A stretch of 32,000 bases of DNA from Schaalia odontolytica (lineage in GTDB: Bacteria > Actinomycetota > Actinomycetes > Actinomycetales > Actinomycetaceae). The position numbers and the translations under genes are program-made. The notes beneath the pieces are model-generated. The model saw only the letters and a list, made by a program, of their open reading frames with translations, ran no database searches and was not told the origin of the DNA. The number at the start of each line of letters is the position of its first letter. The first letter of the stretch is position 1. Below, in pieces: positions 10,138-27,658 of the stretch. Location: the NCBI RefSeq assembly GCF_005696695.1, contig NZ_CP040006.1, forward strand, positions 240,001 to 272,000, read 5' to 3'.

Positions 10138-12138
10138 TTACTTCGCGGCGGACTCGCGATCCGAGTCGCGCGTGATCTTACGAGCGAAGTTGTAGAGCAG
10201 CCACGTCGCAACCGCGAAGAACACCAGGCCCAGAACGTTCGCGAACGGCGTGAAGCCGTCGCCGATGAACGGCAGCGCCAGCGGCGACTCCGAGCCCGTC
10301 GCGCCCGCGATGCCCGCGTAGACGACGCCGAACAGGGACTCGCCGACGATCAGGCCGGTGGCAGCCAGCGTGCCGAAGCGCTTCGCGCGCTCCACGTCCG
10401 CCTGCTTGTCAGCCCACCTGTTGTACAGGAAGCCAATGAACGCGCCGATCGGGATCAGGACCGTCAGGGAAGCGGGCAGGTAAATGCCCATGCCGACCGC
10501 CAGCGGAGGCAGGGCGAGCTTACCCTTCGACGCGGGGCGCAGAACCTCGTCAATGATGATGACGACAACGCCGATCGCAGCACCGATGCCCAGGAGCTTC
10601 CAGTCGATGCCGCCGCCAAGCACGCCCTTAGCGAGCGAGGAAATCAGCGAGGCCTGCGGGGCCGCCAGCGCGTCCGGTCCAGCGCCGGGAGCGCCCTGGA
10701 AACCGAAGGAGTTCTGCATGAGCTCCAGGACCGGGGGAATGATCAGCGCGCCGAAGACGACGCCGATGACCAGGGCAACCTGCTGCTTCCACGGGGTCGC
10801 GCCCACCAGCTGGCCCGTCTTGAGGTCCTGCAGGTTATCGTTCGCGATCGTCGCAATGCAGAAGACGATGGCCGAGGTGAACAGCGTGTAGGCGATGAGT
10901 GCCGTGTTCTCTTCCGTGGTCGAGCCGCGGCCGTGCACCGCCAGGATGACGACCGCCGTGATGACGACGACCAGCAGGCCGACGCCGGAGACCGGCGAGT
11001 TCGACGAGCCGATCAGGCCGGCCATGTAACCACAGACCGCCGCGACCAGCAGGCCGGCGAGCAGGATGAAGATGACCGAGACGGCAATCAGGACGGCCGT
11101 GTTGTGCTCGATCTGCGTGCCGCGCATGAACCACCACAGCAGACCTGCGATCGGAACCATGGCCACAAAGATGGAGACGATAACCCACTTGCCGGGGATA
11201 TCCTGCTCGGTGCGGTCGACCTGCGCGCCATTCTCCTTGGTGCCGCGCGAGGCGCGCAGCGACTCAGACATGCCGCGGGCGATCGGGCCCATGATCTTGA
11301 TGAGCGTCCAGATGGCGGCGACCGCCATGACGCCCGCGCCGATGAAGCGCACGTCCGACTTGAAGACCGTGGACAGGGCTGAGGTCAGATCATCCGCGCC
11401 GTCCAGCTGGCCGTTCGCGTACAGGGGCAGTAGAACGCCGTAGGAGGTGACCATGCCGATCAGCATCGCGATGCCGACCGTCATACCGACCAGGTGGCCC
11501 ACGCCGATCAGAGCGAGGGACAGGGAGGTGGAAATCATCGTGCCCGTCGAGCCAATCTTGAAAGCCGTACCAACCTCGGAGGCCACGACCTTCATGTAGC
11601 CCAGAAGCGCCATCGTGGCCGAGGCCAGGGCGCCCCACGTGATGGCCAGGAGGCCACGCTTGTTGTCCTCGCCCGCATCCTGGGCATCGCCGACCTTCAG
11701 AATCTCAGCGCCTGCCACGCCCTCCGGGTAGGGCAGGTCCGAGCCGGTCACGAGCGCGCGGCGCAGGGGGATCGAGTACATGACGCCCAGCGCACCGCCG
11801 ACCGCACACACAAACATGGTCTCCCAGTAGGGGAAACCGCTCCACCAGCCGACAATCACGAGGCCGGGGAGAACGAAGATGACCGCCGACAGCGTGCCGG
11901 CCGCCGAAGCGATGGTCTGGACGATGTTGTTCTCCTGGACCGTGTGGTCGCCCCAGAAGCGCAGAACCGCCATCGAGATGACGGCTGCCGGGATCGACGT
12001 CGCAAACGTCAAGCCGACCTTCAGACCCAGGTAGACGTTCGCGGCCGTGAACAGCAGCGTAATAATGCCGCCGAGGATGATGCCGCGGAGGGTCAGTTCT
12101 TTGAGCGACGTTTGCTTCGTCGCGTTTGGCGCAGACAC
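10138..12138 (-). CDS. OPT-family oligopeptide transporter (about 666 aa, polytopic membrane protein)
   Basis: The N-terminus (LKELTLRGIILGGIITLLFTAANVYLGLKVGLTFATSIPAAVISMAVLR) is the signature start of bacterial OPT-superfamily transporters, and there are many TM segments. I place the start at the GTG at complement 12136-12138, which has an AAAGGA Shine-Dalgarno 5 nt upstream. The longer track ORF (to 12420) would run into the tRNA gene. Confidence 0.85.
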   Translation of the reverse strand: MSAPNATKQTSLKELTLRGIILGGIITLLFTAANVYLGLKVGLTFATSIPAAVISMAVLRFWGDHTVQENNIVQTIASAAGTLSAVIFVLPGLVIVGWWSGFPYWETMFVCAVGGALGVMYSIPLRRALVTGSDLPYPEGVAGAEILKVGDAQDAGEDNKRGLLAITWGALASATMALLGYMKVVASEVGTAFKIGSTGTMISTSLSLALIGVGHLVGMTVGIAMLIGMVTSYGVLLPLYANGQLDGADDLTSALSTVFKSDVRFIGAGVMAVAAIWTLIKIMGPIARGMSESLRASRGTKENGAQVDRTEQDIPGKWVIVSIFVAMVPIAGLLWWFMRGTQIEHNTAVLIAVSVIFILLAGLLVAAVCGYMAGLIGSSNSPVSGVGLLVVVITAVVILAVHGRGSTTEENTALIAYTLFTSAIVFCIATIANDNLQDLKTGQLVGATPWKQQVALVIGVVFGALIIPPVLELMQNSFGFQGAPGAGPDALAAPQASLISSLAKGVLGGGIDWKLLGIGAAIGVVVIIIDEVLRPASKGKLALPPLAVGMGIYLPASLTVLIPIGAFIGFLYNRWADKQADVERAKRFGTLAATGLIVGESLFGVVYAGIAGATGSESPLALPFIGDGFTPFANVLGLVFFAVATWLLYNFARKITRDSDRESAAK

Positions 12139-12387
12139 GAAAAATCCTTTCGCTGCCTTGAATAGATACCCTGCAAGAGTAGTGCATTTATGAGTGGGCG
12201 TGAATGGTATGCGGTTACTTAATCTCGTATTCAACCGTTCTAAATGCCGAGGTCGCGCTTGTTTTGCTTGTTCCGTGTGAACTTTCGGGGTTGTGGCCCT
12301 GCTCCCAGGCTGCTGTGTGGCCCTCCTCCCAGCACGCCCGGTCGATTTGCGCGCGCAGGGGGAGGGTGTAGTAGAGTATCCGGGTAA

Positions 12388-12477
12388 GGTAGCGTGTCCG
12401 AGCGGCCGAAGGTGCAGCACTCGAAATGCTGTGTGGTGTCACAGCCACCCTGGGTTCAAATCCCAGCGCTACCGCCA
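12388..12477 (+). tRNA. tRNA-Ser, anticodon CGA, with encoded CCA
   Basis: Acceptor stem GGTAGCG/CGCTACC. D-loop GAGCGGCCGAA, typical of class II tRNAs. Anticodon stem CAGCA/TGCTG with loop CTCGAAA (anticodon CGA). Long variable arm (TGTGGTGTCACAGCCACCC). T-arm CTGGG-TTCAAAT-CCCAG. Discriminator G followed by CCA. Confidence 0.9.
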
Positions 12478-12480
12478 CTG

Positions 12481-12514
12481 CCGCCCGGCCCCATTGGGGC
12501 CGGGCGGTTTTGTT
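12481..12514 (+). terminator. Rho-independent terminator after tRNA-Ser
   Basis: CCGCCCGGCCCC (12481-12492), loop ATT, GGGGCCGGGCGG (12496-12507), followed by TTTTGTT. Confidence 0.8.
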
Positions 12515-12744
12515 ATGCCTAGCTGGTGTGCCGTGTTGCCGTGTTGCTTGTGGCCCCACGGGTGTTCCGGGCGCCGGAGGGCCCGGCCGCCCGCGAGGCT
12601 AGGCGACCTCACTTCGTTCGGCGCCACGCCTCGAAGCCCGCCCGTGCCCTCCGGTCCCTCCGGCGCCCTCCACACCAGTGGGGCTAGGTCGCTGATGTGT
12701 GGCGCGTCGTCTCGTAGCCCGGCCAGGCCCCGCCGCCGCCGATC

Positions 12745-12857
12745 AATTTCGCACGTAATTCTCCTGCGGCTTGTTCAAACATTGAATTTGCATCGTTGGA
12801 ATTGCAACGTTTTTGGGGTGTGTCGAAAAATGACCACGATAAATTACGTGCGAAATT
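12745..12857. repeat. Perfect 16-bp inverted repeat flanking an 81-bp AT-rich core
   Basis: AATTTCGCACGTAATT (12745-12760) is the exact reverse complement of AATTACGTGCGAAATT (12842-12857). The enclosed sequence is much more AT-rich than the window average. Confidence 0.8.
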
Positions 12858-12928
12858 TGGGAGGCGGTGGTGTCGTTGCTGCCCGCGGGCGCCGCGACCA
12901 GGCCCTGTCGACCGGGTGGCCCGGTTGT

Positions 12929-13034
12929 CTGAAACCGCTGTCGCCTTTGCGGGCGCCGGCCGAGCTTTAGCTGAAACCCCTGTCGCCTTTGCTTGCTGGT
13001 GTCTGTGTGGGAGTGAAACCGCCATCGCCTTTGT
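12929..13034 (+). repeat. Three direct copies of a 22-bp motif, phased at exactly 42 bp
   Basis: CTGAAACCGCTGTCGCCTTTGC (12929), CTGAAACCCCTGTCGCCTTTGC (12971) and GTGAAACCGCCATCGCCTTTGT (13013). Confidence 0.85.
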
Positions 13035-13076
13035 GGGCGCGAAATGGGCGTTTTTGGTGCGTTTTTTGGCTGCATT

Positions 13077-13180
13077 GGTGTTGTTGGTTTCAACGGTTGC
13101 TATTCAGGGGCGCGCAGTGGTGATGGCGGTTTCATACTGGCCTGCATCAGTGGCTGCAGAGGTGTCATTGGTTTCAAAGT
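13077..13180 (-). repeat. Three inverted-orientation copies of the TGAAACC-type motif, again phased at exactly 42 bp
   Basis: GGTGTTGTTGGTTTCAACGG (13077), GGTGATGGCGGTTTCATACT (13119) and GGTGTCATTGGTTTCAAAGT (13161). The reverse complement of copy 2 (TGAAACCGCCATCACC) matches direct copy 3 (TGAAACCGCCATCGCC). Confidence 0.75.
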
Positions 13181-13206
13181 CGCCACGTCACAGCGTCCAG
13201 TGCGCA

Positions 13207-13399
13207 AAAAAGTTCGCCCAGCAGGGCCTGGTGGTGGGTGTGAGCGTGACAAAATTCGCCCAGCGCTCGAGAAATAGCCGAAAATCGGCGTTTTATGGTG
13301 TGCTGGGCGAGTTTTGTACCGGGTTGGCCCAAGAATGCCGAGTGCTGGGCGAACTTTGTCGCGGGCCAGCAGCTGTAGGCGTCCGCGGGCGAACTTTGT
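13207..13399. repeat. Five copies of a 16-bp motif GCTGGGCGAAnTTTGT, two inverted then three direct, spaced 42/42/40 bp within each set
   Basis: Minus-orientation copies are AAAAAGTTCGCCCAGC (13207-13222) and ACAAAATTCGCCCAGC (13249-13264). Plus-orientation copies are GCTGGGCGAGTTTTGT (13302), GCTGGGCGAACTTTGT (13344) and CGCGGGCGAACTTTGT (13384). The two sets diverge around the small palindrome GCCGAAAATCGGC (about 13278-13290). Confidence 0.8.
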
Positions 13400-13507
13400 T
13401 GCGCCGTGCGCTTGGTAGCTGGGCCCCTCTACTGGCAGTGTTAACCCTTTAATGCGCAGCTAAACCCACCTAGTGGTAGCTGGGCGTGGCTGCCCACGCT
13501 CCACCAG

Positions 13508-13586
13508 GTGGGTTAACGTGCGCAGGAAAGGGCCCAGGCGGCCACCTGCTGGGTTAGGACCCCCCATCTATCGGGTTAACGTGCGC
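13508..13586 (+). repeat. Two direct copies of GGGTTAACGTGCGC, 63 bp apart
   Basis: GTGGGTTAACGTGCGC (13508-13523) and CGGGTTAACGTGCGC (13572-13586). An inverted GTTAACCC lies at 13440-13447. Related words recur at 24688-24696 and 25064-25076. Confidence 0.75.
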
Positions 13587-13695
13587 GTGACGGGCGGCCT
13601 GGTGATATGTCGTGTGCTGCGGACCAGCAGCCTCTGCGGGCGCTGCAGCCAGGCCCACGGGTCCTTCGAAGCCGTCGCGCCTCCCGGGATACGAC

Positions 13696-13725
13696 AGAGG
13701 CGGGACCCCGAAGGATCCCGCCTCT
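13696..13725 (-). terminator. GC-rich hairpin, possibly the sodA terminator
   Basis: AGAGGCGGGA (13696-13705) pairs with TCCCGCCTCT (13716-13725) across a 10-nt loop. It lies about 110 nt downstream of the sodA stop on the minus strand and has no clear U-tract. Confidence 0.3.
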
Positions 13726-13833
13726 CGTTGCGTGCGGTGGCCGCGCCGTCGGCGCCGATAAGACAGCGCTAGAAACTCAGTGCCCGAGCCTCAGCTCGGT
13801 AACAACGGCCGCGGTCGTGTCAGGCACGAACGG

Positions 13834-14520
13834 TCAGTTCTTCCACCAGCCCTTGACGGTGTCGATGGCCTGCGTGCCCAGGTCGGTCAGCGCGGAGTGG
13901 GCGTTGACCAGGCCGGAGGACAGGCGAGCGGCCTGGAAGCGGGAGGCGACGTTCTCCCAGTTCACCAGGTTCCACCAGGCCTTGACGTAGTCGGCCTTGA
14001 CGTTGAGGTAATCCAGGTAGAAGGCGTGCTCCCACATGTCGATCATGAGCAGCGGAACGGTCGCGACCGGGATGTTGCCCTGCTGGTCGGTCATCTGGTA
14101 GGTCACGAGGCGCTTGCCGACGGTGTCCCACGCGAGGACGGCCCAGCCGGAGCCCTGCAGGCCCAGGGCTGCGGCGGCAAACTGAGCCTGGAAGGACTCA
14201 AAGGAGCCGAAGAACTCGTCGATGGCGGCGCCGAGCTCACCCTCGGGGCGCGAGGCGCCCTCGCCGGTCATGTTGGTCCAGAAGATGGAGTGGTTGGTGT
14301 GACCGCCCAGGTTGAAGGCCAGGTTCTTCTCCCACAGGTTGATCGCGGCGAAGTCACCGGACTCGCGGGCGGCAGCCAGCTTCTCAAGGGCCGCGTTCGC
14401 GCCGGCCACGTAGTTGGCGTGGTGCTTGGAGTGGTGCAGCTCCATGATGCGGCCGGAAATGTGGGGCTCGAGAGCGGCGTAATCGTAGGGAAGTTCGGGC
14501 AGGGTGTAGACGGTCATCAT
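13834..14520 (-). CDS. sodA: Mn/Fe superoxide dismutase
   Basis: M(M)[32 protein letters not shown]...[11 protein letters not shown] is the canonical Fe/Mn-SOD sequence, including the metal ligands. There are two tandem ATGs (14520 and 14517) behind a CAGGAGGAGC Shine-Dalgarno; the second may be the true start. The track ORF extension to 14655 is rejected. Confidence 0.93.
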
Positions 14521-14625
14521 GCTCCTCCTGGGCGTCGTCGTCGTTTGTCTGTTGACTCCAAGGGTAGTACTTAAGTCCCGCCTTGCGTAGGGGTTATGTG
14601 TCACCTTTCGCGCAGTGCGATCAAC

Positions 14626-17471: not shown

Positions 17472-17602
17472 TCGCCGCATCAGGTGGACTTTGTGGCGTC
17501 ATTCTAGGAGTGTCGTCAGCGTGGACAGGGGAGTGCACGAGGCCGACTCCAGATGTGGGACCCCTGTGTTAGCCTGACGCCACAATCACGCGAAGGAGCG
17601 AC

Positions 17603-18997
17603 ATGGACTACGAGCTGGCCTACCGATACGGTGCCCCCTCGCGCCTGGAAGAGGGCGGCGGCCTTGCGCTGGCGACCTCGGGAGGCTCGACCCCCGAGGG
17701 GGAGGCAGCGCATCCCTTTTTCTTTTCGGGCTTCATGGAGCGTCCCGACGTGGTGGCCGCCGGTCTGCTCGCGGTCGCACGTGTGGCGCGTACCCGCTTC
17801 TATGTGCCGCCGGGCATGGTCGTCGCGCCCGGCGGAGGCCTGACTCGTATCGGGATGCTCGACCCGGTCGTGACCAGCACGGCCGAGGGCCTGCGCTTCG
17901 AGTCCTTTAGCGTCTGCTGCGGCGTGTACGCGCGGCTCGACGTGGAGGCCTCGGCCCTGGACGCCACCCACTGCGCAGTCGGCGTGACCAACGTGGATGT
18001 TAATCAGCCGCTGCGTGCCGCCCTAGCGTCGCTGCGAGCTGGGGAGCCCCTGCACCTGGGTGTGGGCGAGGAGGGGCTGACGGCCACGACCCTGGACGAG
18101 GAGGTCACGGAAGAGAAGGTGCCGCTGTCCCTGCGCTGGCTCAAGGGATTCGCGGAGACACAGATGCTCTCCTCCGCGATGATGCCGCTGCATGCGTTGA
18201 ATACCGCGCAGGCGCGCGCCTTCATCCGAGGCCTGCCCAGGTCCAGCGCGACGGGCACGGTCATGTGGGCGGGGCGGGCCGTGCGCGGTCTGCGTTTGGG
18301 GACCCGGCCTGCGCCGGGGGCCGCGTGCGTCGCCGGCCCCGAGCGCCTGCGCGTGTTCGAGCCGCTTCTTCATCTCATCACCTCGCTTGAGGCCTACGGG
18401 CCTGATGTGGATGCTGGCAGCGAGCCGGTCGCTTCCCTGTGGGTCGCCCGCCTGCCCGGCGCGCGCCTCTCCATTGGGCTCAGCCCCGCCAAGTCGCGCG
18501 GCTTCTCGGGGGAGGGTGCGGTCCTGGCGTCCCTGGGAGATCCGCGCGTCGAGGAGGACGCGGATATGCTGTCCGCCCTGCTCTCCTTCGAGCCGCGCAT
18601 CGACACGCAGCTCATGGCCGCGCGCTCCGGACTGGCCCCCGACCGGGTGGCTGGCGGCCTGGCACTCCTGGCCTCGAGTGGTCAGGTTGGCTTCGACGTG
18701 ACTGAGGGGGCCTACTTTCACCGTCCTCTGCCCGTGCGTCCCGACGCCCTCACCGCTATGCATCCGCGCCTGGCAGGGGCGCGCACGCTCATTGAACGCG
18801 GTGCGGTCACCCACGAGGAGGGGGCGCGCTTCCGTGTCGCCTCGGGCGCAAACCGCTACCGGGTGGAGGTGCCCGCCGACCCCTACGCCATCGGCGAGTA
18901 CCGCTGCACGTGCCCGTGGTGGATGAAACATAGGGGTGGGCGGGGGCCATGCAAGCATGTCCTCGCCGTCTCCACGCTGATCAAGGAGGATCAATGA
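17603..18997 (+). CDS. SWIM zinc-finger family protein (464 aa), first gene of a three-gene operon
   Basis: ATG with a GAAGGAG Shine-Dalgarno. C-terminal CxC-x16-CxH SWIM signature (YRCTCPWWMKHRGGRGPCKHVLAV). High GC3. The stop TGA overlaps the next start (ATGA at 18994-18997). Confidence 0.85.
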   Translation: MDYELAYRYGAPSRLEEGGGLALATSGGSTPEGEAAHPFFFSGFMERPDVVAAGLLAVARVARTRFYVPPGMVVAPGGGLTRIGMLDPVVTSTAEGLRFESFSVCCGVYARLDVEASALDATHCAVGVTNVDVNQPLRAALASLRAGEPLHLGVGEEGLTATTLDEEVTEEKVPLSLRWLKGFAETQMLSSAMMPLHALNTAQARAFIRGLPRSSATGTVMWAGRAVRGLRLGTRPAPGAACVAGPERLRVFEPLLHLITSLEAYGPDVDAGSEPVASLWVARLPGARLSIGLSPAKSRGFSGEGAVLASLGDPRVEEDADMLSALLSFEPRIDTQLMAARSGLAPDRVAGGLALLASSGQVGFDVTEGAYFHRPLPVRPDALTAMHPRLAGARTLIERGAVTHEEGARFRVASGANRYRVEVPADPYAIGEYRCTCPWWMKHRGGRGPCKHVLAVSTLIKEDQ

Positions 18998-21453
18998 GTC
19001 AGAAGTCGGATCCGTTCCGGCGGCCAAAAACGCTGGATGAATGTGCGGACTTTTGGAGACTGCACCTGTGGACCGAGGGCCACCCAGGCGAGTGGACACT
19101 CGATCAGGTCTACGCGCGCATGCTCGAGATTAACGAGGGCCCGCCCACGGCCCATGACCTGGACGTCAGCTCCAGGGTCACCGGTGCTTGGCTCAAGGGG
19201 ATCGGATTCTTGCGCCTGGCCGAACTGCACGGCGACCTGGCCCTCGACCACGATCAGCGGTACCTGACGGCGCTCATCGGCCTCGAACCCGGACTGCAGC
19301 TGCCCCTCATGCGTGCCGATCGGGAGCTGCGCGAGGAGCTGGTGTGGGGGATGCTGCGCCAGGAAGGTAACCGCGGCGTGTCGCTGTCCTCCTCCGACCG
19401 TTCTGCCTCGATGGGCTCGGAGCAAACGCCCGGCTGGTCGCGCACGTTCGAAGCGAGCGTCAATGAGGGGCTCATCGAACGTGATCGTCTGCTTGACGCC
19501 CTCCTGGAGATGCTGGCGGCCGACCTGCCCTCGGCACGTGCCGGGTGGTATTCGCGCACCCTGCGCCTGCTCGCCATGACCATTGACGAGGCCGAGGCGC
19601 GGCAGCCGACTCTGTGTGCCCTCATGTCGTCTCCCGTCGGGGCAACCGTGACCCTGGCGGTCGGGCACCTGTCCGCCCTCGCCAGGGCTGGTCGCCTCGA
19701 CCTGGAGCTGTTTGCGCGCAGCTGCGAGGGAGCGCTCATGGGGTCGAAGGCCAACGCACTCGCAGCCTTGACAATCCTGCGCGGTGGTCTCGAGGTCCTG
19801 AGTCCCGGCGGCATCGAACCCCTGTTGGCGATCGCGATGTCTTTCCCGCATGCGCAGGTGCAGGCTCTGGCCATCGAGCTGGCGAGTGACGCGCTGCGAT
19901 CGGGCCTCCTCGACTCCGCAGCGCTCGGCCGACTCCTGTCGGATGCGGAGTTGGACCCGCTCGTCGTCGCCACGCTCGACCTCCTCGACCCGGGGCACAC
20001 GGCGAATGGCCAGCCTGACCCCGGACCCGTCCCCGAGGAAGGTAGCGGTGGGCAGGCTCCCGCCGCCTTCTTGCCGCCTCCCCGTGAGGTGAACGACCTG
20101 GTTCCCATGAGCGCCGACGACGTGGTTGGTCGGGTCGGTGTCCTGGCGCAGGGCGCGCAGATGGGGCTCGAGTATGAGGCGCTGCTCGCGTTCCTGGCAT
20201 CCCCCGAGTACGACCCGAGTGCGCTGGAATCGTTGCGCCCGCTTGTGCGGCGCCTGACCACGCGCAGGTTTGGGTACGAGCGCATGCTCGGAACTCTCCT
20301 GCAGATAGCCCTCAATGGGGGAGGGGAGGGTGCTGAGAGCCCGCTGGCCGCTGGCACCGCCTGGTTGGAATCGGAGAACATGCCCACCCTCATGCGAGAG
20401 CGCATCATCGAGGTCGCGGGTCTGCTCGCACGCGGGCAGCGCTACCGCCTCCTGGCCACGCCCACCGACGACCGGGGAGCCGTGAATCCCCTGACGCTCG
20501 TGCGCCGTGCCCTGGACAACGGGGGCGCGACACCCCTTCCAGCCGACCTCACCCAGGCGCTGCTGCGCGTGGACACCGAGCATCCGGACTGCGCGGCCGC
20601 GCTCGTGCTCGTGGACGAGCGGGAGGCGGACCTGCCCGCCTCCGCCGTCGCCCGCATTCGCCTCGCCCTTCAAGGGGTGGTGCGCAGACGTGCCGAGGGC
20701 TACCTGTCCTCACTCTCCGTGACGTGGGAGGGGCGTCCCTCCTATGAGTCCGGGAAGCCCAAGGTCGCGCGAGACGGCTCGCCGATCTACGCATTTTTCT
20801 TCCCTCGCATCGTCGGCGTGGACACAGGTGCGACAGGACCCGAGCTGAGCGCGCTCGCGGATATTGCGAGTGCTTCGGGCGATTTTACTGCCCACCGCTA
20901 TCTCTACCCCGCGTCGGTGCGCCACTTCGCCGTCTGCCTGCTTGCCTCTCAGTGGTACGTGCTTGACCACACCCAGCTGACCTGTGAGTGCTACAGGGCC
21001 CTGTGCGAGCACGGCGGGCGCTGGGATTCGCTGTCCGCCCAGCTCCTTGGGCAGGCGATGGGCGAGCGCGAGGTCGAGTCGCGCGCGCTCGGCGTCGAGG
21101 CCCTGGCCGCCTTGGTGGCGCGCGGTGACCTCGCCTTCGACCAGGTTGTGTCTGGTTTCGAGGCCGTGGCGCACACCGTGAAACTGAACCGGTGGGCGCA
21201 GGCCTTCGGGGATCTGGGGGACGTGGACCCCCGCCTCGCGCTGGATCTGGCGCTCACGCTGCTGCCCGGGCTCGAGCGAGGGCGCACGGGCATCGGGCAG
21301 TTGCTGGGCGTCGTTACTGCACAGTACGCACGGGCGCAGGCCGAGGGATGGGCGCCGCCGCTCGGCGAGGAGTGTATCGGCTGGCTCGGCCTTTTCCGAG
21401 GGTCCTCACAGGCGGCCAAGTATGCGCGCACGCTGAAGGAGATGGGCCAATGA
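18994..21453 (+). CDS. Large (819 aa) Ala/Leu-rich, probably all-helical repeat protein of unknown function, SWIM-associated
   Basis: ATG at 18994 with AAGGAGGA immediately upstream and an ATGA overlap with the SWIM gene. Long uninterrupted frame with strong GC3 bias. I see no Walker, nuclease or other catalytic motif. The stop overlaps the next start (ATGA at 21450-21453). Confidence 0.8.
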   Translation: MSQKSDPFRRPKTLDECADFWRLHLWTEGHPGEWTLDQVYARMLEINEGPPTAHDLDVSSRVTGAWLKGIGFLRLAELHGDLALDHDQRYLTALIGLEPGLQLPLMRADRELREELVWGMLRQEGNRGVSLSSSDRSASMGSEQTPGWSRTFEASVNEGLIERDRLLDALLEMLAADLPSARAGWYSRTLRLLAMTIDEAEARQPTLCALMSSPVGATVTLAVGHLSALARAGRLDLELFARSCEGALMGSKANALAALTILRGGLEVLSPGGIEPLLAIAMSFPHAQVQALAIELASDALRSGLLDSAALGRLLSDAELDPLVVATLDLLDPGHTANGQPDPGPVPEEGSGGQAPAAFLPPPREVNDLVPMSADDVVGRVGVLAQGAQMGLEYEALLAFLASPEYDPSALESLRPLVRRLTTRRFGYERMLGTLLQIALNGGGEGAESPLAAGTAWLESENMPTLMRERIIEVAGLLARGQRYRLLATPTDDRGAVNPLTLVRRALDNGGATPLPADLTQALLRVDTEHPDCAAALVLVDEREADLPASAVARIRLALQGVVRRRAEGYLSSLSVTWEGRPSYESGKPKVARDGSPIYAFFFPRIVGVDTGATGPELSALADIASASGDFTAHRYLYPASVRHFAVCLLASQWYVLDHTQLTCECYRALCEHGGRWDSLSAQLLGQAMGEREVESRALGVEALAALVARGDLAFDQVVSGFEAVAHTVKLNRWAQAFGDLGDVDPRLALDLALTLLPGLERGRTGIGQLLGVVTAQYARAQAEGWAPPLGEECIGWLGLFRGSSQAAKYARTLKEMGQ

Positions 21454-24050
21454 CCACCCCCATGACACTGGCCGAGCGCCGCGCGGCCCTCAAACGCCTC
21501 CTCGCCGCCGGGGAGAGGACAATCGACGCCTACGAGCGGGTGTTGGAGGGGGCCTCAGAGAAGGATCGGCGCTCCCTCTTCAAGTCCGTGCCCTTTGTGC
21601 GCCTCGTCCCGCCAGCCGCCGAGCGGGCGGAAGCCGTCCCCGAGGACACGGTGTGCATGTGCGCGTTCCTGCGCGCAGCCCTGGCCGGGAGCGATGACGC
21701 CGGCGACGACTACGGAGTTCGTTGGTCGGGCCGCAGCGGAGGCGATCCTCGCGAGGGAGCGGACCTGGATCGGCTGCTCGCCGCCCACAGGTGCGGCGCG
21801 GCCGGGCGGAGCAGCAAGTGGCTCGAGGAGGCAGCCGGGAGTCCCGGAGGCATTGGCTTCTGGCACACCTACCGCTCCCTCCTGGCCGAGCGTGGAGCGT
21901 ACCTGACGTCTGCGCCCTCCCTGGAGTACTTCGCGCGCAGGATCATTCCCGCACCCCACCCCACTTCGGATGAGACTCGACTCTTCTTCGAGAAGAACCC
22001 GACCTTCCTCGACCACGAGTTCTGGCAGCTCTTCCGCGTCGAGGGTGCCCTGCCCGGCTCGGCGCTCTTCGTGTGGATGTACCGCGAGGACCCCTCTGCG
22101 CCCGGCGGTGACTTCGAGCGCCTACACAGCCAGGATCTCATCTGCTACATGGCGACGCACCTACCGCATCTGCGGCCCCGCATCCTGTCCGAATGTCTGG
22201 CCGCGCATCGGCGCGACTTTTCCGCATACAACAGTCGTGCCTTCTCGCTGGCCTGGGAGGCGCTTGAACCCACGCGCGAGGAAAAGCTCGAGGCAGCCTC
22301 GGACCTCATCGCCCTGCTTGGGGTCCAGCCCTCGCAGACGGTCACGCTGGCGCAGAAGGCTCTCCTTGGCCTCGTCGGGGAGCTCACGGTAGAGCAGGTG
22401 GGCGCGCTCGTACAGGTCAGCGCTCAGGTCCTTGCCCGCACCGAAAAGAAGCTGCTGCGCGCTCACCTGCGCCTGCTTGCCGCCCTCGTCAAGGCCCGTC
22501 CCGGGTGCGCGACCGCCGTCAGTGACGTGGTCGCTGAGGCTGAGTTCCCCCTCGACCTGCGAGATCGCGCCGCCACGCTCGTCGTGGCCCCTGATACTTC
22601 CGGAGACTCCGTGGACGAGGCCGGGGCCGGGCCTGCGGGGACGGCCACCTCCGACGCGAGCACCCAGGGAAGCGAACCCGGGGGAGGGACCCAGGCCTCG
22701 TGGACGTTCCCGGACACGCCCGCCGCGGACCTACCGCGCACCTCGCGCACCGCTGAGCTGCCCGACGATAACGACGCGGTCGTCGCTGCGTTGCACGCCC
22801 TCTTTGAGGACGCGGCCGCGGGCGCCGCCCTGCCCGCGCTCCTGATGCGCATCAGTGGCGAGGGCATCGAGCTGACGGAGGCCGACAAGGCGCTGCTCGC
22901 CGCGTACTGGAAGAGCGCGCCCAACTGGAAGGGCGCCAACCAGCTGTCCTACCTGGCCTCACGGCTCCTGCGCGACGTGGAGGTGAAGGACGCACCCGAG
23001 GCAGGTCACTTCCGCGGCTACCGGCGCAAGGGCAGCGAATGGGAGCAACACCGCGGCCCAGTCCAGCTCCTGCACGAACAGCTGCGCGTCGCATTGCGCG
23101 ACAAGCCCTACGACAAGCCGAACGGTCAGGACATGTACCGCTTCGACCCCATCCTGACCGCACCGCTGGAACCGATCCACCCGCAGTGGGAACGTCAGAT
23201 CATTCGAGCCGCCTACCAGAAGCCCGTCAGGGTTGTGCGCGGTGAGTACAAGAAGACCGACGACATGCATGAGACGTGGGTGATCCCCGGGCAGAGCCCG
23301 GCCACGGGTGCCGACTCGCTCACCCAGGCCCTCACCAACGTCGCCGGCGTCGCCCCCGAGTTCACCGGGCGCCTCCTGGAATCGGGGGACTACCGGTCGA
23401 GCGGCGTCGCCTACGCGTGGGCGGCCTGGGCGCTCCAGCACAACCCGGACATTCTGGCCGCCCACGCGATGCCCGTCCTCCAGGGTGCGTTCTTCAAGTT
23501 CCCGCAGGTCATCACCGCCTTCGAGGTGATAGTGCGCGCACTGGGACAGGGATGGCGGGCGCCGGGCGCGCCCACCTACTCGGCCCTGGCGTGGGCATCC
23601 ACCGCCGCCCAGGCCAACTACCGGGCGATCACCGCCGAGGCTATCGCGGGTCTCGCCGATACCGGCCGCTTCGACCCCGCCGCCATGGCCGAGGAGATCG
23701 GCTACCTGATGCGCAACGGGTGGTTCGGGCCCGGGAGGGTCACCCAGACACTCAGCGACTGCGCGTCCGTCTCTGCCCTGGCCGGGTATCGCGTCGCCCA
23801 GACGATCACCGCCGTGCTGCCCGCGCTGGCCGGTGTCAGAGGAGCAAATGGCATGGTCGAGGTGCTGGTGGCGCTCGCGGGCGACTACGGCATGAGGGTG
23901 AGCGTCCCCGATGAGATGCGCCCCAAGATGAAAGGATCAAGCGCGATGGCTAAGGCGCTGCGCGCGCTTGACGCGCTGCCTGATGCCCCGACTGATCTCG
24001 CGTGCGAGGCGGCTGAGGCACTCGATGCAGTCCGAGTGCGGCAGGGGTAG
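21450..24050 (+). CDS. Large (866 aa) helical protein of unknown function, apparent paralogue of the preceding gene
   Basis: ATG at 21450 with a GAAGGAG Shine-Dalgarno 8 nt upstream and an ATGA overlap. Its segment QTVTLAQKALLGLVGELTVEQVGALV...LLRAHLRLLAAL resembles ATVTLAVGHLSALARAGRLDLELFAR...ANALAALTIL in the preceding protein. There is a central acidic/Gly/Thr-rich linker. The last ~35 codons are duplicated at 25687 onward. Confidence 0.8.
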   Translation: MTTPMTLAERRAALKRLLAAGERTIDAYERVLEGASEKDRRSLFKSVPFVRLVPPAAERAEAVPEDTVCMCAFLRAALAGSDDAGDDYGVRWSGRSGGDPREGADLDRLLAAHRCGAAGRSSKWLEEAAGSPGGIGFWHTYRSLLAERGAYLTSAPSLEYFARRIIPAPHPTSDETRLFFEKNPTFLDHEFWQLFRVEGALPGSALFVWMYREDPSAPGGDFERLHSQDLICYMATHLPHLRPRILSECLAAHRRDFSAYNSRAFSLAWEALEPTREEKLEAASDLIALLGVQPSQTVTLAQKALLGLVGELTVEQVGALVQVSAQVLARTEKKLLRAHLRLLAALVKARPGCATAVSDVVAEAEFPLDLRDRAATLVVAPDTSGDSVDEAGAGPAGTATSDASTQGSEPGGGTQASWTFPDTPAADLPRTSRTAELPDDNDAVVAALHALFEDAAAGAALPALLMRISGEGIELTEADKALLAAYWKSAPNWKGANQLSYLASRLLRDVEVKDAPEAGHFRGYRRKGSEWEQHRGPVQLLHEQLRVALRDKPYDKPNGQDMYRFDPILTAPLEPIHPQWERQIIRAAYQKPVRVVRGEYKKTDDMHETWVIPGQSPATGADSLTQALTNVAGVAPEFTGRLLESGDYRSSGVAYAWAAWALQHNPDILAAHAMPVLQGAFFKFPQVITAFEVIVRALGQGWRAPGAPTYSALAWASTAAQANYRAITAEAIAGLADTGRFDPAAMAEEIGYLMRNGWFGPGRVTQTLSDCASVSALAGYRVAQTITAVLPALAGVRGANGMVEVLVALAGDYGMRVSVPDEMRPKMKGSSAMAKALRALDALPDAPTDLACEAAEALDAVRVRQG
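23945..24012 (+). repeat. Direct repeat copy 1 (inside the 3' end of the 866-aa gene)
   Basis: 62/68 identical to 25687-25754. The 44-bp core TGCGCGCGCTTGACGCGCTGCCTGATGCCCCGACTGATCTCGCG (23959-24002) is perfect. Confidence 0.9.
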
Positions 24051-24615: not shown

Positions 24616-24636
24616 GGGTGCTCCTCTGCTCGCCTA

Positions 24637-24675
24637 TGTACAGAACATTGTACAGTATTTGAGGGTGCGTGTCTC
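24637..24675 (-). promoter_or_regulatory. yefM-yoeB promoter with a paired TGTACA operator
   Basis: TGTACA (24637-24642) and TGTACA (24649-24654) are 12 bp centre to centre. As I recall, this is the arrangement of the E. coli yefM-yoeB operator. On the minus strand a -10 TACAAT (complement 24647-24652) overlaps the operator, and GAGACA (complement 24670-24675) lies 17 nt upstream. Confidence 0.6.
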
Positions 24676-24820
24676 TAGTCGGCTGGTAACGTGCGGGAGT
24701 ACTACCTCCGTGCGGGGCCAGGTACTGCGGAACTGCTCGCACGGGACTGCTGACGCGGGACTGCTGGCACGGGGTCTGCATCGCGGCGTCCTTCACCTGG
24801 GAGGGAGAGGCCTGCACGTC

Positions 24821-24921
24821 CTGGATAGGTAGCGCCGATCTGGATAGGTAGTGCTGATCTGGATAGGTTATTTTCCTATCCAGAACGTCATAACCTATCC
24901 AGTTCGTGGTTTCCTATCCAC
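24821..24921. repeat. Iteron-like array of three direct then three inverted copies of CTGGATAGG, each set phased at 19 bp
   Basis: CTGGATAGGTA at 24821, 24840 and 24859. CCTATCCAG / CCTATCCAC at 24875, 24894 and 24913. The central perfect palindrome is CTGGATAGG-TTATTTT-CCTATCCAG (24859-24883). Confidence 0.9.
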
Positions 24922-24947
24922 TTCGTGGCCGCCCGTGCCCATACATG

Positions 24948-25018
24948 TCCGCACGTGGGCCCTTTCATCCGCACGTGGGCCCTTTCATCCGCACGTGGGC
25001 CCTTTCAACCGCACGGGG
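24948..25018 (+). repeat. Tandem 20-bp repeat, 3.5 copies
   Basis: TCCGCACGTGGGCCCTTTCA at 24948, 24968 and 24988, plus a partial ACCGCACGGGG at 25008. Each unit contains a CACGTG palindrome and GGGCCC. Confidence 0.9.
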
Positions 25019-25081
25019 GTAACGCCGCCTACGCGCAGGTCATGGGGTTTCCGTGCGTATCGAGGGGTTAACGTGCAGTCC

Positions 25082-25507
25082 TTAGTGGCCGCGGTGGCGA
25101 GCTTTCGCTTTCAGGCGGGCGAGGCGGCGTTTCTCTTCAGCTTTCTCACGTTTCTTCTGCTTGGTCGTGGAAGCTCGTTCTCGTGCCATGCGTTCGCGTT
25201 CTGCTTGAATCGCTGCCTGTGATGCAGTGGAAGGAAGCGCACGGCGGGCGAGGTGGGAAGCTTGGCGCTGTGCGCGCTTGGGGTTGTGGTGCGTCGCCTG
25301 ACGTTGGGCCATATCGGAAGCCCAAGCGACCTCGTCGAGGCGGCACAGGAGAGCGTTAGCGTGAGCGAGAAGGAACTCGTAGAACTCCGCGTCTGAGGGC
25401 TGTGCGCCGAACACGATTCTAACGGCGCGAAAACGGTCGGCCTCGTGGCGCTCAATGACACCGACCCAGAACTGACCATCGAAATATAGTGTGGACTCCG
25501 TCTTCAT
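25082..25507 (-). CDS. DUF2992 (YjdF-like) family protein with a highly basic C-terminal tail, 141 aa
   Basis: MKTESTLYFDGQFWVGVIERHEADRFRAVRIVFGAQPSDAEFYEFLL matches my recollection of the DUF2992 N-terminal signature (FDGQFWVG). ATG at complement 25505-25507 with GGAG upstream. The Lys/Arg-rich tail is KQKKREKAEEKRRLARLKAKARHRGH. Confidence 0.7.
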   Translation of the reverse strand: MKTESTLYFDGQFWVGVIERHEADRFRAVRIVFGAQPSDAEFYEFLLAHANALLCRLDEVAWASDMAQRQATHHNPKRAQRQASHLARRALPSTASQAAIQAERERMARERASTTKQKKREKAEEKRRLARLKAKARHRGH

Positions 25508-25686
25508 TACTCGTCTCCAGGTACACCAGGGTGGACCCGATGACGCTGGATTCTGCTCGGGGCAGCGACGGATGCGAGGCATCGCCCAGACTTCCTACTG
25601 GACTGTGCGGTTCGCGTATCAGGACTGACGACTCATTATACGTCCCGTGTTCCAGGGTGTTGCTACTGGACGATCGGCTTGCCGCC

Positions 25687-25754
25687 GATGGACAAGGCCT
25701 TGCGCGCGCTTGACGCGCTGCCTGATGCCCCGACTGATCTCGCGCGCGAAGCGG
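25687..25754 (+). repeat. Direct repeat copy 2 (relic or alternative 3' end of the 866-aa gene)
   Basis: The 44-bp perfect core at 25701-25744 is identical to 23959-24002. In frame it reads MDKALRALDALPDAPTDLAREAGAALSAIVSRRADGGGPTSG*, against MAKALRALDALPDAPTDLACEAAEALDAVRVRQG* at copy 1. Confidence 0.9.
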
Positions 25755-25769
25755 GGGCTGCCCTCAGCG

Positions 25770-27479: not shown

Positions 27480-27534
27480 AATGCACCTTGGGGAGGAGGG
27501 GCAGGGAGGCATTATGTCAGGAGTCCATGGGGAC

Positions 27535-27540
27535 ATTATA
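27535..27540 (-). promoter_or_regulatory. Candidate -10 box (perfect TATAAT) for the ABC-F gene
   Basis: The minus strand reads GTTGCCGATATAATGTCC, about 55 nt upstream of the start codon. There is no convincing -35. Confidence 0.3.
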
Positions 27541-27658
27541 TCGGCAACGGCGCGCAGGCGCGGCAGTTCTGCACAGAAATGGGGGCGTCCTCCCGGGGCT
27601 GTCTGTCAAGACTAACGGCTTGCCGACGGACGACATGAGCATGCGGGAGGACACCCGG

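Follow-up and report, generated by a model that had tools for sequence, protein, structure and literature searches.

The BIMEs, which are REP clusters of enterobacteria, are extragenic multicopy hairpin modules in variable mosaics, often located at 3' ends, and have been reported to affect mRNA stability and termination. Neisseria has the NIMEs and Correia elements, and the enterobacteria have the ERIC elements: intergenic repeats of 100-150 nt with a mosaic or imperfect-palindrome build, multicopy and variable between strains. As MITEs, the Correia elements possess defined terminal inverted repeats, duplicate a TA target and insert in either orientation. In the actinobacteria, a dispersed conserved intrinsic-terminator motif of Mycobacterium tuberculosis named TRIT was reportedly described by Czyz et al. 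in 2014, a multicopy hairpin plus U-run at gene 3' ends with a fixed orientation. Phased short repeats, some of them both direct and inverted, are found in iteron and centromere arrays: the sopC repeats of F measure 43 bp, and the lambda origin has iterons. Long inverted arms composed of tandem subrepeats are found in eukaryotic foldback transposons.

The intergenic tract investigated here, between a tRNA-Ser gene and sodA of Schaalia odontolytica, resembles each of these systems in part. It lies in a window of 32,000 nucleotides (contig NZ_CP040006.1, positions 240,001 to 272,000; all coordinates below are those of the window) and consists of a chain of long imperfect hairpins, which we name H1, E, A, B and C. 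The tract shares with the BIMEs the extragenic mosaic of multicopy hairpin modules and the frequent 3'-end position, but its sequence is unrelated, its modules are much longer (125-250 nt), its arms are direct 42-nt subrepeat arrays facing inverted ones instead of alternating single REPs, and its polarity relative to the upstream gene is strict. Module E is similar in size to the NIME, Correia and ERIC elements and is likewise strain-variable and present in many copies; unlike the Correia elements, the tract family shows no target duplication and its orientation is fixed. The likeness to TRIT lies in the conserved, co-oriented hairpin with a U-run at gene 3' ends, while E is larger and cloverleaf-like, and its hairpin-plus-U-run (helix P3) has only 5 bp within a longer stem. 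The period near 42-43 bp and the occurrence of the E core among iterons in oral actinophages recall the iteron and centromere arrays, from which the family differs by the lack of adjacent rep or par genes, about 100 chromosomal copies, a transcription polarity and a split between the direct and inverted consensus sequences. The arms of modules A and B are built like those of foldback transposons, which are elements of another domain of life; for the tract family, neither a transposase nor termini nor target duplications were identified. The features of the locus are as follows.

12388 to 12477, + strand: tRNA-Ser(CGA), the co-oriented upstream 'gene' of the tract (ARAGORN; Rfam tRNA, 48.7 bits).
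12480 to 12508, + strand: canonical intrinsic terminator of the tRNA-Ser, a 13-bp GC-rich stem followed by TTTTGTT.
12553 to 12684, + strand: module H1, a GC-rich hairpin whose 34-nt arms show 85% complementarity.
12734 to 12865, + strand: module E, about 125 nt, cloverleaf-like (135.6 bits with the covariance model).
12930 to 13176: module A as a whole.
12930 to 13034, + strand: left arm of module A, three direct TGAAACCnnnnnCGCCTTTGC cores 42 nt apart.
13035 to 13071, + strand: centre of module A, GCGAAATGGGCGTTTTTGGTGCGTTTTTTGG, related to the centre of module B and the T-run of E.
13072 to 13176, + strand: right arm of module A, three inverted cores with GGTTTCA at the end.
13190 to 13404: module B as a whole.
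13190 to 13270, + strand: left arm of module B, inverted cores AAAAAGTTCGCCC at 13207 and ACAAAATTCGCCC at 13249.
13277 to 13296, + strand: centre of module B, a small hairpin GCCGAAAATCGGC followed by GTTTTAT.
13296 to 13404, + strand: right arm of module B, three direct GGGCGAAnTTTGT cores at 13305, 13347 and 13387.
13445 to 13586, + strand: module C, a hairpin (13445-13485 / 13492-13532) with CCACCnnnGTGG palindromes, and GGGTTAACGTGCGC at 13510 and 13573.
13696 to 13725, - strand: terminator-like hairpin of the convergent sodA, outside the repeat family and kept in L002 and L003.
13834 to 14517, - strand: sodA, Fe/Mn superoxide dismutase of 227 aa (Sod_Fe_N, Sod_Fe_C), convergent and downstream of the tract.

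The genes flanking the tract are an OPT transporter gene, the tRNA-Ser, sodA and a DUF808 gene. The region 12510-13830 carries no coding signal, as the initial annotation of this DNA had concluded. The GC spread between codon positions is at most 0.20 in 12100-13800 vs 0.4-0.66 in the flanking OPT and sodA genes, none of the ORFs in the tract passes the GC3 filter, and a Pfam search with the 218-aa ORF at 12796-13452 returned zero matches. Because the motif sets are inverted, a single reading frame is excluded, and a coding or pseudogene origin is rejected on these grounds; the decayed repeat-protein gene that had been named as the counter-explanation finds neither a Pfam match nor a codon signal. 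In several assemblies, an ORF of 224-283 aa is annotated across the tract. On the sense strand the tract is rich in G and T, with a GC skew of +0.17 to +0.25 and an AT skew of -0.36 to -0.49. A scan of 12100-14000 for sigma-70-type promoters found zero sites. With the Rfam 15 covariance models at the gathering threshold, the scan that had been suggested at the outset, only the tRNA scores; at E <= 5, nothing lies over module E, and modules A, B and C are overlapped only by sub-threshold matches at chance level.

A tRNA gene beside the tract and the hypervariability of the tract core between strains would suit the relic of a mobile element integrated at the tRNA-Ser that had been put forward earlier. 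Such a relic, like a decayed gene, is extremely improbable. The 25-mer at the tRNA 3' end, with up to three mismatches, matches only the tRNA itself in the 32 kb, an integrase gene or fragment is absent among the GC3-filtered ORFs and the Pfam-scanned window proteins (a non-exhaustive check), and blastn against 72,556 plasmids and 50,697 GenBank phages gave zero matches. Among the matches listed, the same modules stand behind 34 other genes.

The short motifs of the tract are phased. The TGAAACC cores (TGAAACCnnnnnCGCCTTTGC) start at 12930, 12972 and 13014 in the direct set and occupy 13072-13092, 13114-13134 and 13156-13176 in the inverted set, both at a spacing of exactly 42 bp, which corresponds to four turns of B-DNA. 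For GGGCGAAnTTTGT, two inverted copies (13207 and 13249) precede three direct ones (13305, 13347 and 13387), the intervals being 42/42/40. These positions and the mirrored arrangement agree with those first reported, the offsets of 1-5 nt reflecting different motif start points. The two copies of GGGTTAACGTGCGC at 13510 and 13573 were also reproduced; they are the only exact ones in the 32-kb window, with near-matches elsewhere, notably at 25045/25065. The CCACCnnnGTGG-type palindromes at 13466, 13501 and 13542 are parts of the larger hairpin of module C. In the autocorrelation of 12900-13420, lags 42, 84 and 21 reached z = 6.5, 4.7 and 3.7, and the largest z at any lag among 500 dinucleotide shuffles was 4.3; the 42-bp period therefore stands against shuffled controls. 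TGAAACC and GGGCGAAnTTTGT are essentially confined to the tract within the 32-kb window, and their observed counts were reached in 0 of 100 shuffles. The kinship of the A centre, the B centre and the T-run of E imposes a super-period of about 240 bp on the tract, and the AT-rich block at 12744-12860 is highly conserved.

The unit of modules A and B is composed of a 21-nt core and a 21-nt spacer, and the spacers are kept between loci (e.g., L169 vs the window). A CRISPR array, in which identical repeats of 23-47 nt run in one direction between unique spacers of 26-72 nt, is rejected, in line with the initial annotation, given the opposed direct and inverted sets, the 21+21-nt unit and the spacers conserved between loci; no cas domains were found among the Pfam-scanned window proteins, which represent part of the ORFs. 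An array like ToxI of type III toxin-antitoxin systems, whose direct tandem repeats of 34-45 nt stand immediately before the gene of a toxin endoribonuclease, was rejected as well, with no gene after the arrays, a convergent sodA and inverted sets.

The modules are dispersed far beyond this locus. At least 120 metagenome stretches (human-associated, high-GC contigs) match the 18-mer of E. About 109 distinct copies carry the entire architecture and just three loci (L140, L155 and L190) are orthologs of the tRNA-Ser/sodA locus, both among the matches listed; H1-like modules occur at 54 loci, A-like at 23, B-like at 30 and C-like at 17, again among the matches listed. Both the content of the mosaics (E-A-B-E in L181, E-B in L199) and the module order (E-B-A in L193, E-A-B in L207) vary, E copies stand in tandem 260 nt apart in L156, and the arms of A contain one to five cores, often in unequal number between the two arms. 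Within the species, 12820-12970 is replaced by a different hairpin in L084 and L086, an alternative allele of module C in L085 and L002 differs by two compensatory pair changes, and the tract core is unalignable between strains whose flanks are 89% identical. Very probably, the tract belongs, as one copy among many, to a dispersed family of mosaic repeats and is not a locus-specific device.

This dispersal bears on the scaffold, centromere or origin specific to the locus that had been considered at first, a proposal we abandon: the modules lie at about 100 non-orthologous loci among the matches listed, with no rep or par gene nearby. An iteron origin or partition centromere was rejected, no Rep, ParB or ParR gene being adjacent in the OPT, tRNA-Ser, sodA and DUF808 neighborhood. 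The place that the orthologous locus occupies in the complete P. hongkongensis chromosome, and the lack of a DnaA-box-like motif, make a replication terminus or oriC unlikely; for parS, the A core offers only a half-site-like TGAAAC.

The family could be a purely selfish non-autonomous repeat of the foldback-type MITE or BIME-like kind, devoid of host function, whose polarity arises from the insertion mechanism or from purifying selection against the opposite orientation; we regard this as unlikely. It is restricted to a single lineage (the covariance model finds E only in loci of the S. odontolytica group), reaches a high copy number with strain variation and tandem amplification, breaks metagenome assemblies within modules (several contigs break off at 13310, within module B) and contains an IS3 transposase inside one tract (L208), all of which would suit a selfish repeat, as would the analogous arrays of unrelated motifs in other Actinomycetaceae. 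E also has the inverted ends (16-25 nt), the small size and the many copies (>100) of a MITE. Against a selfish repeat, neither a target-site duplication nor a clean empty site nor a cognate transposase was found at the loci compared, and the orientation bias, together with the siting where canonical terminators are missing, suggests host use. The differences between the orthologous loci compared are mosaic replacements; in the orthologous pair L181 and L199, a clean boundary for the insertion of module A is absent, and the loci diverge wholesale downstream of E. Classification as a MITE was rejected for lack of a target-site duplication or precise presence/absence and with 47 of 48 tracts in a single orientation. 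A transposon-end model with Tn7- or Mu-like site arrays was rejected because there is no target duplication or transposase, the IS3 element (L208) and the ParB-like gene (L131/L228/L241) being single-locus occurrences. The family presents extragenic multicopy hairpin modules in variable mosaics, the pattern of the REP/BIME type. We also observe that it is young, confined to one lineage and strain-variable, a pattern equally expected of a purely selfish element.

The orientation of the family relative to transcription is strongly biased. In 47 of 48 tracts the gene upstream of E runs in the same direction as E (p = 3.5e-13), the upstream genes are of 34 different kinds, and the genes downstream of the tracts are on the + strand in 24 cases and on the - strand in 26, all among the matches listed. 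Between the upstream stop codon and E, a canonical hairpin with a T-run is present in just 10 of 47 tracts among the matches listed, and at five loci E begins 43-72 nt past the stop codon; read-through into E is therefore likely.

No other part of the tract is as conserved as module E, which serves as the signature of the family. Its stem P1 (12745-12760 / 12842-12857) forms 16 of 16 pairs; helix P2 is TTCAAACATTGAA (12774-12786), helix P3 is CGTTGGAATTGCAACG + TTTTT (12794-12814), and helix P4 has two alternative pairings. The outer stem covaries: among the matches listed, one pair is CG in 83 and UA in 24 copies, another UA in 82 and CG in 26, a third GC in 97, GU in 13 and AC in 0, and a further one TA in 34 and GC in 22. 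Outer-stem variants of the ACGT and AUGC types stand together on contigs L120, L189 and L197, and also in L181. The loop bases are invariant, and so is a 5-bp hairpin with UUUU in the sense of the upstream gene, whose stem is weak and whose conserved sequence extends 3'. The fold energies of E on the two strands are about equal (-36.5 vs -35.3 kcal/mol). For the tract, the + strand folds at -257.7 kcal/mol (z = -6.0) and the - strand at -194.2 kcal/mol (z = -4.0). The right and left arms of module A in the window form 58 Watson-Crick pairs, 21 G:T and 4 A:C, and family-wide 129 G:U stand against 15 A:C on the sense strand; the asymmetry of the A arms rests on about four sites. Since the copies are mutually related, a few ancestral events rather than many independent ones underlie the covariation and the G:U counts.

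The best reading of these observations is a lineage-specific, orientation-locked intergenic mosaic repeat comparable to a BIME or NIME; as a whole, with a role at the RNA level included, we give it about an even chance. The family is observed to be dispersed in many copies, modular and polar, with covariation in the outer stem of E and a 42-nt phase kept throughout. The modules H1, E, A, B and C are scattered through the intergenic DNA of S. odontolytica-group genomes and are gained, lost, reordered and amplified from strain to strain. A mechanism at the RNA level, a little short of an even chance, would have the tract transcribed together with the co-oriented gene before it, as the 3' trailer of that gene. 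The resulting stack of long RNA hairpins may then stop or insulate transcription between neighbors and/or guard the upstream 3' end from exonucleases, and the cloverleaf of E may provide a specific recognition site within the stack. Several features temper the trailer model. The strong tRNA terminator at 12480-12508 stands ahead of the tract, so read-through at the window locus may be low; E folds about as well on the opposite strand; selection on specific long hairpins is not clear, since the A pentamer does not covary and the A arms are often unequal; and the near-invariant 42-bp spacing, the protein-site look of the loops and cores and the youth of the family count against it as well. P3 is only 5 bp inside a longer stem with a conserved 3' arm, so that simple termination at P3 does not account for E.

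If the tract were instead an independent structured noncoding RNA gene of about 0.8-1 kb, with 21-bp helices and 21-nt loops, its transcript might be processed (e.g., by RNase III) into small RNAs or titrate an RNA-binding protein. The G- and T-rich sense strand and the fold that beats shuffled controls on that strand (z = -6) would fit such a gene, and the terminator that parts the tract from the tRNA implies that the transcript would need its own promoter. We consider it very improbable: 12100-14000 contains zero promoter-like sites, Rfam returns no match over the tract, and module order and copy number are not conserved, unlike those of a defined RNA gene.

The mirror symmetry of the motif sets had first been taken as an argument for a function at the DNA level. 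In favor of it, the cores are conserved and the 42-bp spacing is kept almost throughout. The argument is weakened because E polarity holds in 47 of 48 tracts and stem variants coexist on single contigs, and because G:T far exceeds A:C on the strand with the sense of the upstream gene and canonical terminators are usually missing before E.

In a DNA-level nucleoprotein array, a rather unlikely alternative, a DNA-binding protein would recognise the A and B cores as asymmetric sites, spaced by four helical turns and facing each other as two sets, with E as a cluster of palindromic sites. Such an array would resemble iterons, centromere repeats or the site arrays of transposon ends in its action, possibly with a connection to phages of the host. 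Family-wide, the spacing is 42 nt in 25 of 26 direct and 34 of 35 inverted intervals of module A; it is kept in about 95% of intervals. The A cores combine a conserved core with a central pentamer and spacers that vary without compensation: in nested A cores, 3.67 of the 5 pentamer positions are paired vs 3.48 +/- 0.16 for random pairs (p = 0.14). The phasing, the uncompensated variation and the invariant loop bases of E all favor protein sites. The invariant loops and the conserved core with its variable pentamer resemble sequence-specific protein recognition, possibly on DNA. The same proposal is countered by the 47/48 polarity, which is unexpected for a symmetric DNA site, by two incompatible variants of the E outer arm within one genome, which fit pairing better than recognition by a single protein, and by the consensus sequences of direct and inverted A cores, which differ systematically. 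About 100 copies have no accompanying rep, par or transposase gene, and the ParB-like gene located 4-5 kb from E belongs to one locus type (L131/L228/L241), although this gene is a point in favor of an array.

The possible phage link comes from the E core ACTTTTCGTTGGAATTGCAACGTTTT, found in some 30 contigs of oral actinophages, among them relatives of 'Siphovirus contig89'. It sits there in the replication module, inside an intergenic region of 630 bp and with phage-specific iterons on its flanks; A arrays are also located at the ends of four prophage-like contigs. The match of the phage core spans just 20-26 nt, and a handful of chance lineages is expected for the 18-mer query by a rough estimate on an assumed collection size. 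It is a long shot that the invariant E hairpin (CGTTGGAATTGCAACG + T-run) is a recognition site common to the Schaalia chromosome and oral contig89-like actinophages, which carry it where the replication module has its iteron-rich control region or origin. If so, the E-A-B tracts would be cis sites that interact with replication or transcription factors of the phage or the host; they might blunt infection as decoys or sponges or be phage-mobilised non-coding satellites, with the 42-bp arrays as a protein-loading platform.

In the literature searched, the element family is undescribed, and the Schaalia RNA paper found there concerns the ZTP riboswitch. Abundant in the human mouth, S. odontolytica also serves as the host on which Saccharibacteria (TM7) are cultivated. 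A large repeat family appears to be present in its genome, with kilobase-sized intergenic gaps, broken metagenome assemblies and strain differences, and the modules are markers for strain typing that gene callers can misread as genes. If the modules are protein-binding or phage-related, an unknown nucleoprotein system would be indicated. If, as the orientation-locked mosaic reading with a 3' trailer would have it, they are insulators or 3'-end protectors, they would belong to the means by which this lineage terminates its genes, canonical terminators being absent behind many of the genes upstream of the tracts.

The gene-free tract between tRNA-Ser(CGA) and sodA belongs to a lineage-specific family of intergenic mosaic repeats. 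The features of the locus, from tRNA-Ser to sodA, are as follows.

12388-12477, + strand: tRNA-Ser(CGA)
12480-12508: canonical terminator of tRNA-Ser, directly after the tRNA
12553-12684: module H1
12744-12860: AT-rich block within module E (12734-12865), closed by a perfect 16-bp inverted repeat
12930-13176: module A, with arms of 111 nt and three cores each, forming 58 Watson-Crick, 21 G:T and 4 A:C pairs
13190-13404: module B, pairing by 51 Watson-Crick, 7 G:T and 3 A:C pairs
13445-13532: hairpin of module C
13696-13725: sodA's own hairpin
13834-14517, - strand: sodA

Since tRNA-Ser with its terminator lies on the + strand and sodA with its hairpin on the - strand, the tract is placed between two convergent 3' ends. 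The motifs, arrays and non-coding status reported in the initial annotation are all present as described. With an exact 42-bp spacing in each set, TGAAACC cores lie at 12930, 12972 and 13014, facing inverted partners whose ends are at 13092, 13134 and 13176. Of the GGGCGAAnTTTGT cores, two (13207, 13249) are inverted and three (13305, 13347, 13387) are direct; copies of GGGTTAACGTGCGC lie at 13510 and 13573, and the CCACC...GTGG palindromes were also found. Autocorrelation confirmed the 42-bp period (z = 6.5 at lag 42, 4.7 at 84 and 3.7 at 21), with no lag exceeding z = 4.3 in 500 dinucleotide shuffles. The absence of a credible CDS was likewise borne out: the tract carries no coding signal, its codon-position GC is flat (spread at most 0.2 versus 0.4-0.66 in neighbouring genes), no ORF there passes the GC3 filter, and a Pfam search of the longest ORF returned no domain. 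In the compared contigs L082-L086, automated annotation placed genes of 224-283 aa (in L085, 538 aa) over the tract, antisense to the repeats; these are likely false genes.

Imperfect hairpins follow one another along the tract. A motif, ...CGTTTTTGG, recurs at intervals of about 240 nt in the centres of E, A and B. G and T are unusually frequent on the + strand, which folds as RNA at -257.7 kcal/mol (z = -6.0) versus -194.2 kcal/mol (z = -4.0) for the - strand.

Positions 12000-14600 are 99.96% identical to contig LLVT01000001.1 of GCA_001462375.1, and SodA is 96-98% identical to those of Actinomyces sp. ICM47, an oral MAG and S. odontolytica UMB0018. In the last strain (L003), a second sodA 3'-end fragment at 12397-12470, about 1.8 kb downstream of sodA, indicates that DNA between sodA and the repeat tract was locally rearranged or inserted. 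An oral MAG (L002) and Pauljensenia hongkongensis (L004) share the order tRNA-Ser, tract, sodA; in Gleimia coleocanis the two genes are likewise about 1.35 kb apart, but the intervening DNA differs in content and has low GC. The tract middle cannot be aligned with L002 despite 89% identical flanks, and L002 carries other mirrored 40-bp arrays in its place. Among contigs encoding identical SodA, the tract is 94-99.9% identical yet mosaic: 12820-12970 is exchanged for a different hairpin in L084 and L086, and module C in L085 is another allele with two compensatory pair changes. Four contigs stop within or just past module B. The sole block conserved throughout this same-locus comparison is 12744-12860, and E occurs without A or B in other strains' orthologues of the locus.

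The 18-mer TTGGAATTGCAAYGTTTT from this block matches at least 120 metagenome stretches. Among the matches listed, about 109 distinct copies retain the whole architecture of E (about 125 nt), all in contigs of GC 0.57-0.69, and just three of them, in L140, L155 and L190, sit at orthologues of the tRNA-Ser/sodA locus. One long contig can carry several copies of E, and some are in tandem at intervals of 200-260 nt. H1-, A-, B- and C-like sequences (54, 23, 30 and 17 loci among the matches listed) are for the most part found downstream of E and at non-orthologous places. Even where the upstream gene is shared, module content varies (E-A-B-E in L181 versus E-B in L199), as does order (E-B-A in L193 versus E-A-B in L207); one orthologous locus has a single E in L113 and L176 and three in L156. 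The A arms hold between 1 and 5 cores, frequently with different numbers on the two sides, L169 shows a super-repeat of 84 nt, and the 42-nt spacing is family-wide (25/26 A-direct and 34/35 A-inverted intervals; B intervals 41-42 nt). With the same modules dispersed at non-orthologous loci, the suggested DNA scaffold, centromere or origin is not supported as stated. Nor is a relic of integration at the tRNA, the tract being one copy of a dispersed mosaic repeat.

In RNAalifold and single-sequence folds, E has a long outer stem that encloses three hairpins, including the invariant CGUUGGAAUUGCAACG with a U-run after it; the folding energy of E is about the same on either strand. The outer stem covaries among the matches listed (CG 83/UA 24; UA 82/CG 26; GC 97/GU 13/AC 0), as it does further out (TA 34/GC 22). 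Nothing in Rfam resembles E. A covariance model of E finds one copy in the window and matches S. odontolytica-group loci, with no copy in the compared Pauljensenia, Gleimia or other Actinomyces loci.

Taking the strand of E as +, the closest gene upstream is also + in 47/48 tracts among the matches listed (p = 3.5e-13), a co-orientation seen with 34 different upstream genes; downstream genes are + in 24 cases and - in 26. A canonical hairpin with T-run stands between the upstream stop codon and E in just 10/47 tracts, and E starts 43-72 nt past the stop codon in five loci. The position of the family is therefore that of a 3' trailer to co-oriented genes.

The conserved cores, the invariant loops and the fixed period of 42 bp, or four turns of DNA, would fit a phased array of protein-binding sites on DNA, and the tract may be such an array. 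However, both E stem variants coexist on the single contigs L120, L189 and L197, and in L181, which does not fit easily with one DNA-binding protein recognising them. The sequence evidence favours action of the family as a single strand in the sense of the upstream gene, most simply as RNA, because of this coexistence of covarying stems, the polarity with respect to that gene, the predominance of G:U over A:C in the sense strand (129 versus 15 family-wide), the G:U-compatible transitions that distinguish direct from inverted cores, and the frequent lack of another upstream terminator. The copies are related, so these counts trace back to a few ancestral events; a variable pentamer in the nested A cores shows no covariation (p = 0.14), and in the window a strong tRNA terminator precedes the tract. 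As RNA, the hairpin stack might terminate or insulate transcription and/or protect the upstream 3' end.

The E core ACTTTTCGTTGGAATTGCAACGTTTT is also present in about 30 IMG/VR contigs (42-45 kb, GC 0.50-0.57). In one of about 44 kb (L236), its place is a 630-bp intergenic gap that separates a helicase gene from nuclease/polymerase-like genes; it is co-oriented with them and flanked by phage-specific iterons GGCCAGTTTTG; related phages have GGGTCCAA, CTGTCACA or TGGTACAA beside it. In L236 (6800-7090) and the related viral contigs, a conserved 26-nt hairpin core is bordered by arrays of phage-specific 8-11-nt iterons in the replication module. The nearest GenBank record is that of the oral 'Siphovirus contig89', and phages of Arthrobacter, Gordonia and Streptomyces are distantly similar; contig89 alone has the full core among 50,697 GenBank phage records. 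The core-plus-iteron region of these contig89-related oral actinophages is probably an origin or control region. The phage occurrence could reflect a shared host factor, a phage origin of the core, or coincidence; chance matches to an 18-mer query are expected in a handful of lineages, a rough estimate with an assumed collection size. A arrays form the ends of four prophage-like contigs (GC 0.65); where these are annotated (L260, L262), lysis genes come before the array. In one recurrent locus type, which is probably mobile or prophage, L131 (4315-6093), L228 (4456-6174) and L241 (5543-7318) encode, 4-5 kb from an E/A tract, a 572-592-aa protein that combines an N-terminal ParB domain with an HTH.

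A second non-coding tract of like architecture lies at 24620-25080 of the window, between the YefM/YoeB pair and a DUF2992 gene; the E model finds no copy there. It holds CTGGATAGGTAG three times direct opposite CCTATCCA three times inverted, spaced 19-20 bp, then four contiguous copies of TCCGCACGTGGGCCCTTTCA at 20 bp, and GGGGTTTCCGTGCGT and GGGGTTAACGTGCAG at 25043 and 25063, similar to the module C motif. TGTACA-N6-TGTACA at 24637-24654, immediately upstream of the yefM start, resembles the known YefM/YoeB operator type. Over the window regions compared (17600-24050 and 24620-27600), L085, with identical SodA, lacks the SWIM/DUF6493 genes and the segment with the second array tract, the DUF2992 gene and an ABC-ATPase gene; these segments are accessory islands around the conserved YefM/YoeB pair.

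We found no description of the repeat family in the literature; to our knowledge it is an undescribed member of the known class of intergenic mosaic repeats. Short-period arrays occur in further actinobacteria (L038 3900-4060; L076 1215-1320; L074 20340-20420; L044 2200-2310). Actinomyces glycerinitolerans has CGCCCCGTTGGACCGCCCA four times, then three inverted copies, beside a nucleotidyltransferase gene, and arrays of 19-22-bp period stand at gene ends in an uncultured Actinomycetota MAG (L076) and two Microbacterium genomes (L074, L044). P. hongkongensis has its own dispersed arrays (L004 980-1510 and 11450-11720), with CTGTGAAACC in 4-5 copies at 20 bp, CCYRCCCCAATG in 7 copies at about 21 bp plus inverted copies, and the CCCCAATG motif again in the tract beside the orthologous tRNA-Ser. 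Intergenic DNA of the Actinomycetaceae may therefore in general contain phased mirrored arrays, each lineage with its own motifs.
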